In this document: piece after piece, positions 5,060 through 62,595 of the stretch
Layout: the number at the start of each line of letters is the position of its first letter
Numbering within the stretch: the first letter of the stretch is position 1
From: an uncultured Gammaproteobacteria bacterium
GTDB taxonomy: Bacteria > Pseudomonadota > Gammaproteobacteria > JAURND01
Assembly: GCA_963813895.1 (NCBI GenBank)
Contig: CAWFAS010000004.1
Location: forward strand, 453,100-517,099
Reading direction: 5' to 3'
Length of the DNA stretch: 64,000 nucleotides
Translations under genes and position numbers: made by a program
The notes under the pieces: generated by a model
What the model was told of the DNA's origin: nothing
What the model saw: the letters and a program-made list of their open reading frames with translations, nothing else
Database searches by the model: none

Positions 5060-5224
5060 ACATGGTTGCCACTAGAGGCTACCCCCTTCCTAACCTTCCC
5101 CCGCAAGCGGGGGAAGGGACTGGTTCGGTACGATAAGTTACGCTATTGTTGCCAATCCCGTACTAGCTCGAGCAAGTTCCTTCCCCCCCTTGCGGGGGAA
5201 GGTTAGGAAGGAGGCAGCATCTAT
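5060..5224. repeat. family A palindromic MITE-like element (ends ccccttcctaaccttcccccgcaagcgggggaagg)
   Basis: ~165-bp element with long terminal inverted repeats. Copies occur at 7107, 23119, 28431, 41816 and 43299. Confidence 0.85.
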
Positions 5225-5346
5225 TAGCACTTTTACATGAAGTAGCTCAATATTTAGCGGCTTTTTGATTATTTAGGAATAGTAATGCGCGTTTAGAAGT
5301 ATTCAACAATACCGCTTGTCCGCGGGACGACGGAGTGAGCAGTTAT

Positions 5347-5375
5347 ATACCCGATACACTTAGGATTTCGGGTAT
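5347..5375. repeat. family E short palindrome atacccgatacacttaggatttcgggtat
   Basis: Near-identical 29-bp hairpin units recur at 19914, 27384/27644 (as an inverted pair) and 32855. Confidence 0.8.
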
Positions 5376-5425
5376 AGTATATTTATTATCTTGCCTTTCA
5401 AAAAGAACCCTTACAGCAAGCAACA

Positions 5426-6193
5426 TCATTTTTTCTTAGTCAACAACTTGCGCACATGCTCTAAATCTTCTTCTGTATTAACATCTGCCGGAACGTTTTC
5501 CAGGGTCTGGCTTAAATGCACGCGGCCGCCATTCCACAATACCCGTAACTGCTCAAGACGCTCCATCTGTTCTAGCGGCGAAGTCTCCCATTCCATATAT
5601 TGCTGCAGGAATCCAACGCGATAAGCATAAATACCTACATGGCGGAAATGTTCAGTCAGCAACTTTTGATTTTTTTTTGGTGGGATTTGGAAGTGTTCAC
5701 GATCCCAGGCAATGGGAGCACGACTGAAATATAATGCATAACCGCGCTTATTCATTACCACTTTAACATGATGGGGATTAAACAACTCCTCTATGCTTTT
5801 GATAGGCTCATATAAAGTAGCCACCCGAGCATTTTCGTATTTTACTAAATCCTCGGCCACCTGGCGGATCACAACAGGTGGAATCAAAGGTTCATCACCC
5901 TGCAAATTAACAATGATTTCATCCTCAAGATACCCTAAGGCTACTACAGCTTCGGCTAAGCGTTCAGTACCCGTGTTATGATCGGGAGAGGTCATGCAAA
6001 CGAGTGCACCAAAATCTTCCGCTACTTTAGCAATGCGCTCATCGTCGGTGGCAATTACTACGCTCTCGGCACCACTTTCTATGGCACGTTCATAAACATG
6101 CTGGATCAAAGGCTTGCCGGCGATATCTAACAACATTTTGCCCGGAAGACGGGTTGATGCATATCGGGCTGGGATGACGACTCTAAATTCCAT
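5426..6193 (-). CDS. kdsB: 3-deoxy-manno-octulosonate cytidylyltransferase (CMP-Kdo synthetase)
   Basis: [30 protein letters not shown]... aligns along its full length with the KdsB family. Confidence 0.95.
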
Positions 6194-6372
6194 TATTCCA
6201 CCTCTTTTCCACTTAATCGACGGGCCTGATCCTCCAGCATAACGGGTATCCCATCACGGATCGAATAAGCCAATTGATCAGCTTTGCAGATCAGTTCGTG
6301 GGTGGTTTTCTGGTAAATTAATTTACCTTTACAGATCGGACAGGCCAGAATTTGTAATAATTTATAATCCAC
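6193..6372 (-). CDS. Trm112/YcaR-family small protein (UPF0434)
   Basis: GTG start at 6372 immediately after an in-frame TAA. The product is [59 protein letters not shown], which contains the CPxCKG Trm112 signature. Its stop overlaps the kdsB ATG (ycaR-kdsB synteny). At <60 aa it is absent from the ORF track. Confidence 0.6.
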
Positions 6373-6642
6373 TTAGACGTCTCCGTTGCTTAAAATGAAT
6401 TGTGCGTGTTTAAAACCATTGCTCGGGCACAGCAGAAGAACTGCTTTATGTATAATAGTATAGCTGTAATTGGCTATTTTTGTTTTATGGCAGTTAATTA
6501 ATGGATTTCGATTTGTAAGAAGTTTTTATTATGTCATACCGGCGGATGCAGGTATCTGGAAATTATTTGACCTCAAGCCTGTAATTCAGGTGTTGAGTGT
6601 CACTTAGCTTGTTAATGTTTTTAGCGGCGTAAGCTTAATATT

Positions 6643-6947
6643 TTGTAATTATTCAGCAGGGTAGCCCTCAAGCTTGCGGGATAGAGTTTGCCGTCCGACC
6701 CGCCCCCTCTCCCGCAGGGGAGAGGGGATATAGAGCCAGAAGAAGCGATACTGCTTGGATGATAGATATCTAAGATAGAGACTCTGCTAGTCAGAAATAG
6801 CATAAAATCTTATCCTCGCTCTATATTTTCTTTCTGCTCTATATCCCCTCTCCCCTCGCGGGAGAGGGTTAGGGAGAGGGGGTGCGTCGGCCTGCACACT
6901 CTATCCTACAAGCAAGAGAGGGCCACCCCGCTGAATAATTACAATAT
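6643..6947. repeat. composite palindromic element with family B core (ctctcccgcRgggagagggg) and terminal inverted repeats ttgtaattattcagc
   Basis: Terminal IRs at 6643-6670 and 6920-6947. Internal GGGAGAGGG palindromes are present. Confidence 0.7.
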
Positions 6948-6959
6948 ATTTTTTCAAAA

Positions 6960-7036
6960 TGGTCGGGACGGCAGGATTTGAACCTGCGACCCCTTGCACC
7001 CCATGCAAGTGCGCTACCAAACTGCGCTACGCCCCG
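6960..7036 (-). tRNA. tRNA-Pro (anticodon GGG)
   Basis: The reverse complement CGGGGCGTAGCGCAGTTTGGTAGCGCACTTGCATGGGGTGCAAGGGGTCGCAGGTTCAAATCCTGCCGTCCCGACCA folds as a cloverleaf. The anticodon loop AUGGGGU gives GGG, and CCA is encoded. Confidence 0.9.
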
Positions 7037-7106
7037 TTTTTAGAATTATTTATTACATTACTTTCTTTGACTAGTTTGATTAGAAGACTCAGATAAAGTG
7101 CCCCCA

Positions 7107-60209: not shown

Positions 60210-60232
60210 TTCGATCCCGCCTAGCTCCACCA
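60210..60232 (+). repeat. 23-bp direct repeat of the tRNA-Ala 3' end (att-like remnant)
   Basis: ttcgatcccgcctagctccacca is identical to 56826..56848. Confidence 0.85.
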
Positions 60233-60239
60233 GCGTCCC

Positions 60240-60315
60240 GTCCCCATCGTCTAGAGGCCTAGGACATCGCCCTTTCACGGCGGTAACAGGGGTTCGAATC
60301 CCCTTGGGGACGCCA
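60240..60315 (+). tRNA. tRNA-Glu (anticodon TTC)
   Basis: GTCCCCATCGTCTAGAGGCCTAGGACATCGCCCTTTCACGGCGGTAACAGGGGTTCGAATCCCCTTGGGGACGCCA is near-identical to the gammaproteobacterial tRNA-Glu(UUC). Confidence 0.92.
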
Positions 60316-60358
60316 TCTTTAAGTCATATGAATTTGTAACTATTCAGCACAAAATTCG

Positions 60359-60481
60359 TTTTCTCCCCTCTCCTGCTTCCGGCAGAGGGGCCAGGGGTGA
60401 GGGTGTTTCATTAAGCGCAAATGCAAACCGATGCACCCTCATCCCCGGCCCTTCTCCCGCAAGCGGGAGAAGGGAGAAAGC
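60359..60481. repeat. family B element (inverted relative to 40485)
   Basis: gcaaatgcaaaccgatgcaccctcatccccggcccttctcccgcaagcgggagaagggagaaagc. Confidence 0.8.
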
Positions 60482-60509
60482 TAATGTAAACTCATATGGT
60501 GAATACTTT

Positions 60510-60602
60510 ATGGATCTTTTCTATCTGACCATCCTAGCATTCTGCGTGTTAATTACCTTAACGCTAATTGCGGGGTGTTCCAAGCTGGGAGCAGGGAATT
60601 GA
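60510..60602 (+). CDS. small hydrophobic peptide (30 aa) upstream of kdpF
   Basis: MDLFYLTILAFCVLITLTLIAGCSKLGAGN is a single TM helix. Its stop overlaps the kdpF TTG. Confidence 0.3.
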   Translation: MDLFYLTILAFCVLITLTLIAGCSKLGAGN

Positions 60603-60688
60603 ACTGGCTTTATTTTATCTCCGGCGGTATCGCTGTTCTGATATTTATCTATCTCATCATTGCCCTGATTAAACCTGAGTATTTCTAA
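60599..60688 (+). CDS. kdpF: K+-transporting ATPase subunit F
   Basis: TTG start. The product (M)NWLYFISGGIAVLIFIYLIIALIKPEYF is 29 aa. Compare E. coli KdpF ...VFLLLGYLVYALINAEAF. It ends 1 nt before the kdpA ATG. Confidence 0.6.
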   Translation: MNWLYFISGGIAVLIFIYLIIALIKPEYF

Positions 60689-62419
60689 ATGAGCATCAAT
60701 GCCATTGTGCAGCTGATTCTATTTCTAGTTGTTTTGCTTCTCACCACTAAACCATTGGGCTGGTATATTGCGCAAATCGCAGCTGACAAACCGGCCGGTT
60801 TGAATCGTATACTGCGTCCATTGGAAAATGGGATTTATTGGCTGTGTGGTATTAAACCCCAACAAGAAATGAACTGGCGCCAATATGCGGTGGCAGTGAT
60901 TCTGTTTAATTTGCTGGGTGTCGTGATGGTTTATGGGCTGCAGCGCCTCCAGCTGTGGCTGCCCCTCAATCCGCAGCATTTCCCGAATATTAGCCCCGAT
61001 TCAGCGTTTAATACCGCTATCAGTTTTGCCACCAATACTAACTGGCAGGGATACGCCGGTGAATCAACCCTGAGTTACTTAACGCAGATGCTCGGGCTTG
61101 CCGTACAGAATTTTTTTTCCGGCGACACGGCTATCGCGGTGGTGCTAGCTTTAATCCGCGGATTTTCTCGACATAGCGTAGTCACTATAGGTAATTTCTG
61201 GGTAGACTTGACGCGGGTTATTTTATATCTATTACTGCCACTCGCCCTAGTATTTGCCACCCTACTTATGAGCCAGGGGGTGATTCAAAACTTCAACCGT
61301 TATCAGCAAGTCTCCACCTTGGAACCCACTCAGACTAACCACTCCCAGACCTTGCCCATGGGGCCTGTGGCCTCACAAGAGGCTATCAAAATGCTGGGCA
61401 CTAATGGGGGAGGTTTTTTTAATGCTAATTCTGCTCACCCTTTTGAAAACCCAACTCCTTTGAGTAATTTCTTGCAGATGCTGGCCATTTTCCTGATTCC
61501 AGCGGCTTTGTGTTATGCCTTCGGATGGTTAGTCGGCGATACCCGTCAGGGTTGGAGCGTTTTGGCCGCTATGATTATTATTTTCGTGATCATGGCGTGT
61601 GTGGCGTTATATGCTGAACAGCAGGGCAATCCCTTGCTAAGTGCCGCTGGTGCCGATCAAAGCCTGTCACCGCTACAGGCGGGTGGTAATATGGAAGGAA
61701 AAGAAACGCGCTTTGGTATTACCGCTTCAGCATTGTTCGCGACTATTACTACTGCTGCCTCTTGCGGAGCGGTCAATGCGATGCATGATTCATTTACGCC
61801 TTTGGGTGGATTGGTGCCCCTGTGGTTAATACAATTGGGTGAGGTTGTATTGGGTGGTGTAGGCTCGGGTCTTTATGGCATGTTGATGTTTGCACTATTG
61901 GCGGTGTTTATCGCTGGATTGATGATCGGCAGGACGCCTGAATATTTAGGTAAAAAAATTGCCGCATTTGATATGAAAATGCTCTCTATTGCTATTCTGA
62001 TCACACCTATGTTGGTGTTGTTGGGTACTGCCATTACCGTTATGGCACGGAAGGGCACCGCTGGAATTTTCAATCCCGGTCCGCATGGCTTCAGTGAGGC
62101 GTTGTATGCCTTCTCCTCTGCTGCAAACAACAATGGCAGCGCATTTGCAGGGTTATCTGCCAATACTCCTTTTTATAATTTGTTACTAGGCATCATCATG
62201 TGGTTTGGCCGTTTCTGGGTCATTGTGCCGGTATTGGCTATTGCCGGTTCACTGGCGGCTAAAAAACGCCTGGCGGTGACCAGTGGCTCATTACCTACGC
62301 ACGGCATACTTTTTACTAGTTTGTTAATAGGGGTGGTGATTTTGGTGGGCGCTTTGACTTATTTGCCAGCATTGGCATTGGGGCCGATTGTGGAGCAGAT
62401 TATGTTGGTTGGGAAGTAA
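60689..62419 (+). CDS. kdpA: K+-transporting ATPase subunit A
   Basis: [29 protein letters not shown]...[13 protein letters not shown] matches KdpA along its full length. Confidence 0.95.
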
Positions 62420-62435
62420 TTATTTTTTTGGGGAC

Positions 62436-62595
62436 ATTAGAGGCTACTACCTTCCTAGCCTTCCCTCACAAGGGCATTGCTGCATAATCCATCTGTCACT
62501 TGTGGGAAAGCACTGTATCCCTTCTCCCCTGCGGGAGAGGGATAGGGAGAGGGGTTGGTGTGGCATCATTGTTAAATTAAAGTGTAAATGCTTAA
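62436..62595. repeat. palindromic repeat (GGGAGAGGG-type) inserted between kdpA and kdpB
   Basis: cacttgtgggaaagcactgtatcccttctcccctgcgggagagggatagggagaggggttggtgtggcatcattg is related to 17750..17870 and to the IS-flanking 49-bp unit. Confidence 0.75.

Follow-up and report, generated by a model that had tools for sequence, protein, structure and literature searches.

Layered palindromic elements in the intergenic DNA of an uncultured gammaproteobacterium, and a pair of triplex-type modules around a DUF559 nuclease gene

Most intergenic regions in one stretch of the chromosome of an uncultured Gammaproteobacteria bacterium (GenBank assembly GCA_963813895.1, contig CAWFAS010000004.1, positions 453,100 to 517,099) contain palindromic repeats, and this locus raises the question of what these repeats are and how they came to be there. 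The stretch that was analyzed (to be referred to as the window) is 64 kb long, with a GC content of about 43%. The evidence favors a layering, in the intergenic DNA of this chromosome, of small non-coding palindromic elements of several unrelated kinds, with a probability of roughly 0.55 for this layered explanation as a whole. The families arrived by several mechanisms, not one. The kinds themselves, namely BoxC/TMECO motifs, miniature inverted-repeat transposable elements (MITEs) derived from insertion sequences (ISs), and an IS110-family element, are already known; what is unusual is how dense and interwoven they are. In addition, a pair of BoxC-type modules, the commonest type of repeat here, brackets a gene of DUF559, a very large family of 'endonuclease-like' proteins for which a structure has been solved and no role is known.

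Self-BLAST and repeat finding on the window identified 34 palindromic elements in at least nine families. Together these cover 5,321 nt, or 8.3% of the window; of the non-genic DNA (14.7 kb), they make up 35%. Of the 33 intergenic regions at least 40 nt long, 27 contain one or more elements. An earlier, sequence-only reading of this DNA had described dense and diverse palindromic repeat families across the intergenic regions, and all the families that it named were recovered where it had placed them. It had not noticed family I (11733–11911 and 18827–19006), the IS110-family element, or the DUF559 gene between modules. Long near-perfect palindromes predominate among the elements, with predicted hairpin stabilities of −90 to −160 kcal/mol and fold z-scores against shuffles of −8 to −28 for most of them. 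The description as palindromic holds for most families, but not for family G, which is largely non-palindromic with one module in each element. At the gathering threshold, Rfam finds three tRNAs in the window and no other known RNA family. A cyanobacterial origin and repeats of the HIP1 type were rejected, as GCGATCGC is present only three times.

Several families share the core CCCGCAAGCGGG, with 18 occurrences in the window against 0.12 expected. A GC-rich core common to several families had been pointed out earlier. It is real, and it corresponds to the BoxC/PIT/TMECO triplex motif, which had gone unrecognized. One module of about 36 nt underlies families A, B, G, and H. The module has a pyrimidine tract of 9–10 nt, a short GC-closed loop, a complementary purine tract, a spacer of 2–5 nt (usually TTA, TCG, or CCG), and a second purine tract that mirrors the first. 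In the family-A element A1 (5058–5233), for example, the sequence is CCCCCTTCC-TAA-CCTTCCCCC-GCAAGC-GGGGGAAGG, where tracts 2 and 3 pair as a hairpin and tract 1 is the mirror image of tract 2, not its complement. A module of this design can be folded as a hairpin plus a third strand, in other words as an intramolecular triplex.

A strict scan for the module finds 20 copies in the window and none in 50 local shuffles. A permissive scan finds 27, against 0.07 in shuffles; 26 of these are convincing, and the one at 62447–62510 is weak. All 27 are effectively intergenic. Two of them were flagged as overlapping open reading frames (ORFs), one only through a spurious extension at the 5′ end of lpxB and the other at the 3′ end of the DUF559 ORF. 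Where the purine arms are asymmetric, so that a mirrored third tract can be told from a direct one, the ratio of mirror to direct is 14:0 in the window, 66:0 in the 51 family-A loci from other genomes (a sample partly ascertained by a family-A 30-mer, see below), and 33:8 in the independent DUF559 loci. The deviations from the mirror are mostly changes of A to T (177 of 206), and the third tracts are perfect in 22 of the 27 window modules if T is allowed opposite A. In reverse-Hoogsteen (antiparallel) triads, T can stand in for A as the third-strand base opposite an A–T pair. The G-quadruplex was rejected as the unifying structure. Its canonical motif is present in only 15 of the 27 modules, and family A is not among these; the mirror rule is therefore the general one.

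On its architecture, the module is assigned to the intrastrand-triplex motif of E. coli known as BoxC, PIT, or TMECO. The identification was made from the literature and from a reading of the E. coli ycjD locus. The motif is known from E. coli and other Proteobacteria, and its earlier description is credited to Bachellier et al. and to Hoyne and Maher (2000). The name BoxC dates from the 1990s; the term potential intrastrand triplex (PIT) followed in 2000, and Holder et al. 2015 call it TMECO (PMC4666352). The published TMECO pattern is CCCTCNCCC-N3-6-GGGNGAGGG-N3-GGGNGAGGG, with TTA or CCG as the second loop and with inverted pairs of type A and type B (PMC4666352). E. coli K-12 has 23 copies in 4.6 Mb, all of them intergenic, and the motif forms a triplex in vitro and is associated with rearranged loci (PMC4666352). 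According to the same study, these motifs have never been found with a transposase or any other mobility function nearby (PMC4666352).

The window modules share with this motif the three-tract architecture, the TTA/CCG second loop, the frequent inverted pairs that mix loop types, the strictly intergenic position, and conservation across distant bacteria. The inverted pairs and the TTA and CCG loop types agree with the published description, and the family-B doublets combine a TCG or TTA loop with a CCG(G) loop. There are also differences. The density in the window is about 60-fold higher (27 in 64 kb, compared to 23 in 4.6 Mb in K-12). The modules of families G and H and part of those of family B fit the literal pattern CCCTCNCCC...GGGNGAGGG...GGGNGAGGG, or nearly so, while the 12 modules of family A (GGGGGAAGG) do not. 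The commonest variant here (type A, CCTTCCCCC / GGGGGAAGG / GGA[A/T]GGGGG) is thus outside the literal pattern, although it follows the same mirror rule. Moreover, the window modules are embedded in palindromes of 140–300 nt and in MITE shells, and a DUF559 nuclease gene is associated with them, whereas the 2015 study reported no mobility gene with the motif.

The DUF559 gene is located in the first of two family-H units (H1, 45607–46339, minus strand). It encodes a 112-residue endonuclease (45785–46123, minus strand) and lies between two inverted arms of 151 nt (45663–45813 and 46130–46280) with 98% complementarity. At the end of each arm is a long-loop module (45746–45813 on the plus strand and 46130–46197 on the minus strand), with the third tract toward the gene, and a module supplies the final codons of the gene. 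The protein belongs to DUF559 by Pfam (PF04480, E = 3.6e-43) and matches an 'endonuclease-like protein' in the Protein Data Bank (entry 3HRL, E = 1e-28). It is 48% identical to YcjD of E. coli K-12. Against the NCBIfam equivalog model for YcjD it scores 108 bits, with a cut-off of 218, and it is taken as a member of the DUF559 family rather than as an equivalog. A published classification places YcjD among the PD-(D/E)XK nucleases related to Vsr (PMC1189080). The second unit (H2, 49743–50123), about 4 kb from H1, is decayed. It retains both modules (49786–49853 and 49928–49995), with only 72 nt (49855–49926) between the inverted arms, and fragments in it resemble both ends of the gene region.

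The generality of this arrangement was tested on metagenome contigs scanned with a DUF559 alignment, which gave 80 loci with GC contents of 33–70%. A strict module is found within 200 nt of the DUF559 gene in 67 of the 80 loci, and modules are present on both sides of it in 43. The density of modules near DUF559 is 2.26 per kb (129 modules), compared to 0.083 per kb (22 modules) elsewhere in the same loci, a 27-fold difference. The orientation is also regular. The nearest upstream module has the plus orientation in 47 of 53 loci, with its end at a median of 29 nt ahead of the start codon, and the nearest downstream module has the minus orientation in 51 of 57 loci, with the DUF559 ORF usually running into it. 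Homologues of DUF559 also abut a family-A module in two loci of Wenzhouxiangellaceae and in one betaproteobacterial locus. One metagenome contig (L053) carries a DUF559 unit 86% identical to H1 beside different genes. Downstream of the unit on this contig (450–600) is a run of units of about 45 nt, each ending in ...GGGGATACAGTGC; the ACAGTGC tail of these units also follows the G- and H-type modules in the window.

Two unrelated published studies of this protein family are in keeping with the association. Genes annotated as 'DUF559 domain-containing protein' are over-represented 14-fold among predicted inversion targets, in which inverted repeats overlap the gene (PMC9881135), and in Legionella repeated segments with a transposase and DUF559 are recombination hotspots (PMC12308824). 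No link between DUF559 and triplex modules was found in the searchable literature, that is, in papers naming DUF559 and in papers citing the triplex work, and the association is apparently unreported.

The inverted module pair that brackets the gene in the window and in most of the metagenomic DUF559 loci is also found beside E. coli ycjD. In K-12 a BoxC copy is located 165 nt downstream of ycjD, and the remnant of a hairpin lies over the stop codon. The chance of such a proximity between BoxC and ycjD is about 0.002, as estimated from the 23 copies in 4.6 Mb. Between ycjD and BoxC (5244–5400 of the retrieved locus) there is a duplicated piece of about 23 nt of the 3′ end of ycjD, GAATATTCTCCAGCACCGTCTCC, which suggests an older, decayed DUF559 copy at that site. 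In E. coli strains that lack ycjD, homology to K-12 ends about 40 nt outside this BoxC, and the BoxC is therefore part of the ycjD-specific segment. In strains of phylogroups A, B1, and C, this segment replaces the eefRABCD operon, which in phylogroup B2 is found at the fabI–sapF site instead of ycjD (PMC12817139). The published TMECO counts are 13–30 in strains of phylogroups A, B1, and C (with ycjD), 1–2 in B2, and 6–15 in D, E, and F.

Based on this association, DUF559/YcjD-type endonucleases may be the cognate enzymes of BoxC/PIT/TMECO repeats, a proposal that is tentative and has the odds somewhat against it. The module pair and the DUF559 gene would then form one selfish unit, analogous to the gene for a REP-associated tyrosine transposase (RAYT) flanked by repetitive extragenic palindromes (REPs). 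The nuclease would nick or cut the folded module, and repair or recombination would copy the whole unit or a form without the gene. The doublets of family B, which have the same inward topology as H, and perhaps those of family A, would be non-autonomous derivatives that arose by deletion. Alternatively, the doublets may pre-exist as sites into which the DUF559 gene homes, in the way that the IS110-family element targets the module.

Several observations weigh against the cognate-enzyme proposal and the layered explanation that contains it. A cognate nuclease and its repeat would be expected to covary, but similarity among the DUF559 proteins does not track the type of the upstream module (p = 0.27), and it tracks the type of the downstream module weakly (p = 0.002), in a comparison that is confounded by the overlap of this module with the gene. 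A DUF559 gene is near only 4 of the 51 family-A loci, the other neighbors being ordinary genes. The DUF559 unit in the window carries a module of the GGGAGAGGG type, not of the most abundant A type (GGGGGAAGG). The modules also travel in conventional MITE shells (A3, A4, G1, and G3), and therefore need no dedicated enzyme. Across 3,378 E. coli genomes, ycjD keeps to one copy at one site, without visible mobility in that species, and the correlation of TMECO counts with ycjD by phylogroup is suggestive, with very few independent events behind it. BoxC/PIT has shown no promoter or terminator activity and no effect on replication in vivo (as cited in PMC4666352). The lack of covariation upstream, the static ycjD, and the presence of modules in ordinary MITEs are the reasons why the cognate enzyme is held at a lower probability than the layered explanation as a whole.

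The families F, I, A3/A4, G1, and G3 are ordinary MITEs, moved in trans by transposases that are encoded outside the window. The first F copy (F1, 38102–38316) lies in the interval between dnaE and rnhB, has the ends GTAACCATTCACCA and TGCTGAATAGTTAC, and is flanked by a perfect 8-bp target duplication, ATAGGTGT. The second (F2, 56460–56674) is 97% identical to it and has a target duplication of its own, also perfect and 8 bp long (AAATCTTT). What had been described as a 217-bp structured unit is a MITE of 215 nt with 8-bp target duplications. The F-type terminal repeat of 14 nt is common to F, A3, A4, and G1. The element A3 (23096–23288), which contains a family-A doublet, has the ends GTAACTA...TAGTTAT and an 8-bp target duplication, TAAATAAA. 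The element A4 (28415–28608) has the same type of shell and is a near-perfect palindrome of 194 nt (z −21.6), the flanks of which, (C/G)TTTATTT, match at seven of eight positions. Both are MITE shells with triplex doublets at the center. G1 (6645–6942) is a multilayer palindrome (z −15.6) with F-type ends (GTAATTATTCAGCA...) and a module at 6846–6880, and its flanks, AATATTTT and AATATATT, match at six of eight positions.

The element G3 (30856–31016) has ends that are identical at 18 of 18 and 17 of 18 positions to GGCTTTGTTGAATAATTC, with a perfect 9-bp target duplication, TCTAGCTTA, a hallmark of IS903. The inverted repeat of IS903B is GGCTTTGTTGAATAAATC, and its direct repeat is 9 bp long (PMC10569121). 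G3 shares with the MITEs of the IS903 group (IS5 family) these 18-bp ends, 17 of 18 identical to the IS903B repeat, and the 9-bp duplication. On the other hand, several of the IS903-type ends in the window (the further ones are at 10383, 10568, 17696, 51878, and 53759) stand alone or inside larger units, and the interior holds a triplex module. The composites B1 and G4/G5 have IS903-type ends and no matching 9-bp duplication. The single-module element G2 (17694–17822, plus strand) has one IS903-type end (17696–17713) and a perfect module (17743–17777), and G6 (62435–62594, plus strand), also with a single module, lies in the kdpA/kdpB interval.

The first family-I element (I1, 11733–11911) is a palindromic MITE of 179 nt (z −27.7) with a 3-bp duplication (TAA on the plus strand, TTA on the other). 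It is precisely missing from a contig of the same strain (L133, from run ERR11718638) that is otherwise 99.9–100% identical, and the empty site there has a single TTA. Family I is polymorphic within the species. The second palindrome of this family (I2, 18827–19006) has TTA at both flanks. An ORF of 355 residues without a Pfam match (11911–12978) adjoins the polymorphic I1. It lies between rplT and pheS in the otherwise conserved thrS-infC-rpmI-rplT-pheST operon, and it is present in L133 as well. A related metagenome-assembled genome (MAG, locus L042) lacks the doublet B3 at the syntenic lpxB junction, where the boundaries are blurred.

Conventional MITE biology could be extended to the whole window, with all families moved in trans by IS transposases and DUF559 as cargo or as a homing-type selfish gene that uses module pairs. 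This explanation is somewhat unlikely. The terminal repeats and the duplications of 3, 8, and 9 bp in I, F, A3, A4, and G3, with modules inside such shells, argue for it, as do the targeting of a module by an IS110-family element, the weak or absent covariation between DUF559 and modules, the static ycjD, and a weak PADLOC match to a homing-endonuclease model (E = 0.003). However, A1, A2, A5, A6, and B2–B4 have no terminal repeats and no target duplications. H2 and the E. coli remnant show that doublets without the gene can arise from DUF559 units by deletion, and the regular extension of the ORF into the downstream module is unusual for a gene that merely inserted into a site. Near-identical modules of 36–40 nt across phyla are also hard to explain by lineage-specific MITEs. 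No cognate IS or transposase with F-, I-, or IS903-type ends is found in the window.

The modules also serve as landing sites. An IS110-family element (51984–53659, minus strand, with the transposase at 52491–53570) is inserted into the pyrimidine arm of a module, at CCCTCT^CTCCC, with CT duplicated. The insertion splits a G element into a left part (G4, 51877–51983, minus strand) and a right part (G5, 53660–53797, minus strand, with a 50-nt tandem duplication). When the flanks are joined, the intact G element and its module are restored, plus CT. The transposase matches Pfam PF01548 and PF02371 and the NCBIfam model NF033542, 'IS110 family RNA-guided transposase', with 210 bits against a cut-off of 140. 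Insertion of IS110/IS1111-family elements into REP-like palindromes is known from ISPpu9/10, IS621, and IS1111 of Coxiella. The element in the window shares with these the DEDD transposase, the lack of classical terminal repeats, a specific site in a repeated palindrome, and the 2-bp CT core. It differs in its target, which is a module of the triplex type and not a classical REP, and in the long non-coding end 3′ of its transposase gene. This end is 507 nt in length (51984–52490), which we take to be an IS1111-like layout. A bridge-RNA guide was sought in the element; an 8-mer, CTCCCGCA (52193), equals the target core and right flank, but this is within chance. The right end of the element (53641–53659), CCCTATTATTCAGCATAGCAA, resembles the terminal motif of the F-type MITEs, GTAAYTATTCAGCA.

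Elements in the window sit at the exact center of other palindromes, which produces nested structures. Nesting had been noted before at two places, and both are borne out. At the first (16409–16586, z −21.2), the arms of C2 (16409–16435 and 16559–16586) enclose the doublet B2 (16436–16560), which is exactly central. At the second, the full-length palindrome E3 (27383–27676, 294 nt, z −18.1) has an insert of about 190–240 nt between two 51-nt arms of the E type. A family-C palindrome (56331–56399) likewise lies within an A-like outer palindrome (C4, 56306–56424, z −13.8), and the doublets in MITE shells and the DUF559 gene in its doublet are further cases. We infer that the inner elements arrived later. 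Their location at exact palindrome centers suggests that the apices of hairpins or cruciforms are preferred entry points.

The remaining doublets of family A have neither a terminal-repeat nor a target-duplication signature, and the same is true of B2–B4. In A1 (MFE, the minimum free energy, −101.5; z −11.6), the two inverted modules (5082–5117, minus strand, and 5179–5214, plus strand) have their third tracts outward. A2 (7095–7269) is 93% identical to A1 and has the opposite orientation. A5 (41815–41957) lies between lpxB and galU, and A6 (43293–43465), inside which a contig of the same strain ends, between galU and uvrB. The family-B doublet B1 (10383–10585), in the interval between pheS and pheT, is BoxC-like with TCG and TTA loops, and has IS903-type ends at 10383–10400 and 10568–10585. 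B3 (40483–40613) is located upstream of lpxB, and B4 (60354–60504) between the tRNA-Glu gene and kdpF/kdpA.

Family C has a half copy (C1, 13683–13728, ...CGCTCCCTAACGGTCGCGGCTCGGTA), at which two contigs of the same strain end, and a full palindrome (C3, 22928–23013, z −8.7). Family D had been called a perfect palindrome of 170 bp. In D1 (25714–25883, z −18.6), however, perfect inverted arms of 60 nt flank a non-palindromic center of 50 nt. A second copy (D2, 39085–39236) lies between rnhB and an oxidoreductase gene, and a partial arm (D3) is present at 49608–49646. Family E is a hairpin, as had been proposed, but not of 29 bp: the short forms are 31–36 nt long and represent a shortened version of the 294-nt palindrome E3, the 33-nt ends of which carry the E sequence. 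They are found at 5344–5379 (E1), at 19910–19945 (E2, 7 nt downstream of a PIN-domain gene), and at 32852–32887 (E4). Another hairpin, GTCATCCTGAGCGTAGCGAAGGATGAC (49695–49727), is the gtcatcctgagcg type of the sequence-only reading. It has close relatives in a Chloroflexota MAG (L018, about 4870–4960) and in a metagenome contig (L104, 3509–3533), and represents another small hairpin family common to several phyla.

The repeats had been compared to MITEs and REPs and to the expansions of the Rickettsia palindromic element (RPE) and of the Neisseria Correia element. The MITE part of this comparison is supported by terminal inverted repeats and target duplications. A relationship to RPE and Correia is not supported, and the likeness is a loose analogy: small palindromic non-autonomous elements at high density, some of them within operons. 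Correia elements have TA duplications, while here the duplications are of 3, 8, and 9 bp and none is of TA. RPE inserts in frame into protein genes, while the elements here are intergenic, and there are several unrelated families here instead of one. The distinction is drawn from insertion features.

The REP part of the comparison is disfavored, with neither a RAYT gene in the window nor a REP head in the modules, and it is very improbable that the elements are REPs or REPINs maintained by a RAYT. There is a real resemblance, since short structured inverted doublets, REPIN-like in A and B, far outnumber one small gene of the nuclease type, which has inverted copies of the repeat on either side, and the gene-less copies are scattered between housekeeping genes. 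However, no Y1 transposase domain (PF01797) is found in the 40 ORFs of at least 90 residues in the window. Beside the 51 dispersed family-A modules (90 genes, 113 Pfam families), no family is enriched among the top 25 of the 113, and a single RAYT may be present among the rest. The alignments of the modules have no conserved GTAG or CGTC head, and the modules have a third, mirrored tract. The gene flanked by inverted modules encodes a PD-(D/E)XK nuclease with the Vsr fold, not an HUH/Y1 enzyme, and no clear covariation of enzyme and repeat was detected.

The repeats could also have arisen by local duplication within the window or as an artefact of its assembly, an explanation that is already refuted for families A, B, C, H, and I and has next to no probability overall. 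The genes around the copies are single-copy and unrelated, the flanks differ from copy to copy, and the copies have target duplications of their own. An exact 30-mer of family A is found at 51 loci in a collection of species-representative genomes, including 10 contigs of the nearest genome in the collection (MAG 'uncultured Gammaproteobacteria MFD09671.bin.3.6', 65–73% nucleotide identity over the syntenic stretch), 13 loci of a Cardiobacteriaceae MAG, and 9 of a Pseudomonadota MAG. Betaproteobacteria and several Dehalococcoidia/Chloroflexota are further hosts. Dispersal beyond the window, which had been named as the point that would decide the matter, is thus supported for this family. Conservation around the 30-mer reaches about 40 nt, and the flanks are lineage-specific. 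In one Pseudomonadota MAG (CTOTU46466; L021, L022, L027, and L051), a family-A module heads tandem arrays of hairpin units of 24–30 nt (GGTTCCCGCAAGCGGGGGAACAAGGCG...), an organization absent from the window. A second, independent sample of the strain is consistent with this dispersal. Four contigs from Logan run ERR11718638 match the window at 99.9–100% identity, and seven of their eight ends lie within copies of A, B, C, or H, because multi-copy repeats break short-read assembly. In practice, these repeats fragment short-read assemblies of this organism. No counterpart of families C, D, E, F, and I or of the IS was found in the 132 loci (131 related loci or loci from the collection scan, and E. 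coli ycjD), and this absence is no measure of their range. Searches for exact matches to the proteins of dnaE, galU, rnhB, DUF559, tsaD, and PIN gave no match.

Selection by the host is a further explanation, with the repeats as terminators, mRNA-stabilizing hairpins, RNase III sites, triplex or G-quadruplex regulators, or sites for nucleoid proteins. It is improbable. The elements are strictly intergenic, and some are inside operons (pheS/pheT, kdpA/kdpB, rnhB/dnaE) and must therefore be transcribed. The placement at the rnhB/dnaE, galU/uvrB, and kdpA/kdpB junctions, reported earlier, is upheld, and pheS/pheT is another such junction. The hairpins are very stable, and the module is conserved across phyla. 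However, presence or absence differs between otherwise identical strains (I1) and between relatives (B3). Target duplications, nesting, and decayed copies point to insertion rather than to a function in situ. The published tests of BoxC/PIT for promoter and terminator activity, described above, were negative, and the neighboring genes are functionally unrelated.

The genes of the window identified by Pfam are ordinary housekeeping genes of Gammaproteobacteria and include kdsB, pheST, rplT, infC, thrS, tsaD, dnaE, rnhB, lpxB, galU, uvrB, and kdpAB, as well as a VgrG-PAAR-Sel1 cluster. This cluster (28841–32784, in the region 28408–33000) has A4 and E4 at its borders and the MITE G3 between VgrG and PAAR. 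The last 23 nt (56826–56848) of the tRNA-Ala gene (56773–56848) are exactly repeated at 60210–60232, just upstream of the tRNA-Glu gene (60240). The 3.4 kb between the two copies have a GC content of about 35% and one ORF of 928 residues without a Pfam match, and look like an island integrated at the 3′ end of tRNA-Ala. Two regions of low GC content (1223–5017 and 57115–59901) contain two large ORFs, with internal repeats and without a Pfam match. One has a pair of 179-nt repeats that are 74% identical and 42-nt tandem units at 3158–3319, the other has a 189-nt tandem pair with 99% identity (59465–59842), and both may encode surface or effector proteins.

The function, the origin, and the means of spread of BoxC/PIT/TMECO were never found, and DUF559 has had no known role. 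The pairing of the two merges both puzzles into one testable hypothesis, for which E. coli, with ycjD and 23 BoxC copies, is the obvious test system. The bracketing of DUF559 genes may explain how the BoxC motif spreads. If the cognate-enzyme proposal is correct, it would be a second, independently evolved system of a nuclease gene flanked by its own structured repeats, beside RAYT and REP. It would join a Vsr-fold PD-(D/E)XK nuclease to hairpin or triplex DNA across Proteobacteria, Chloroflexota, and other phyla, and such nucleases would account for the genome instability that has been reported at BoxC sites.

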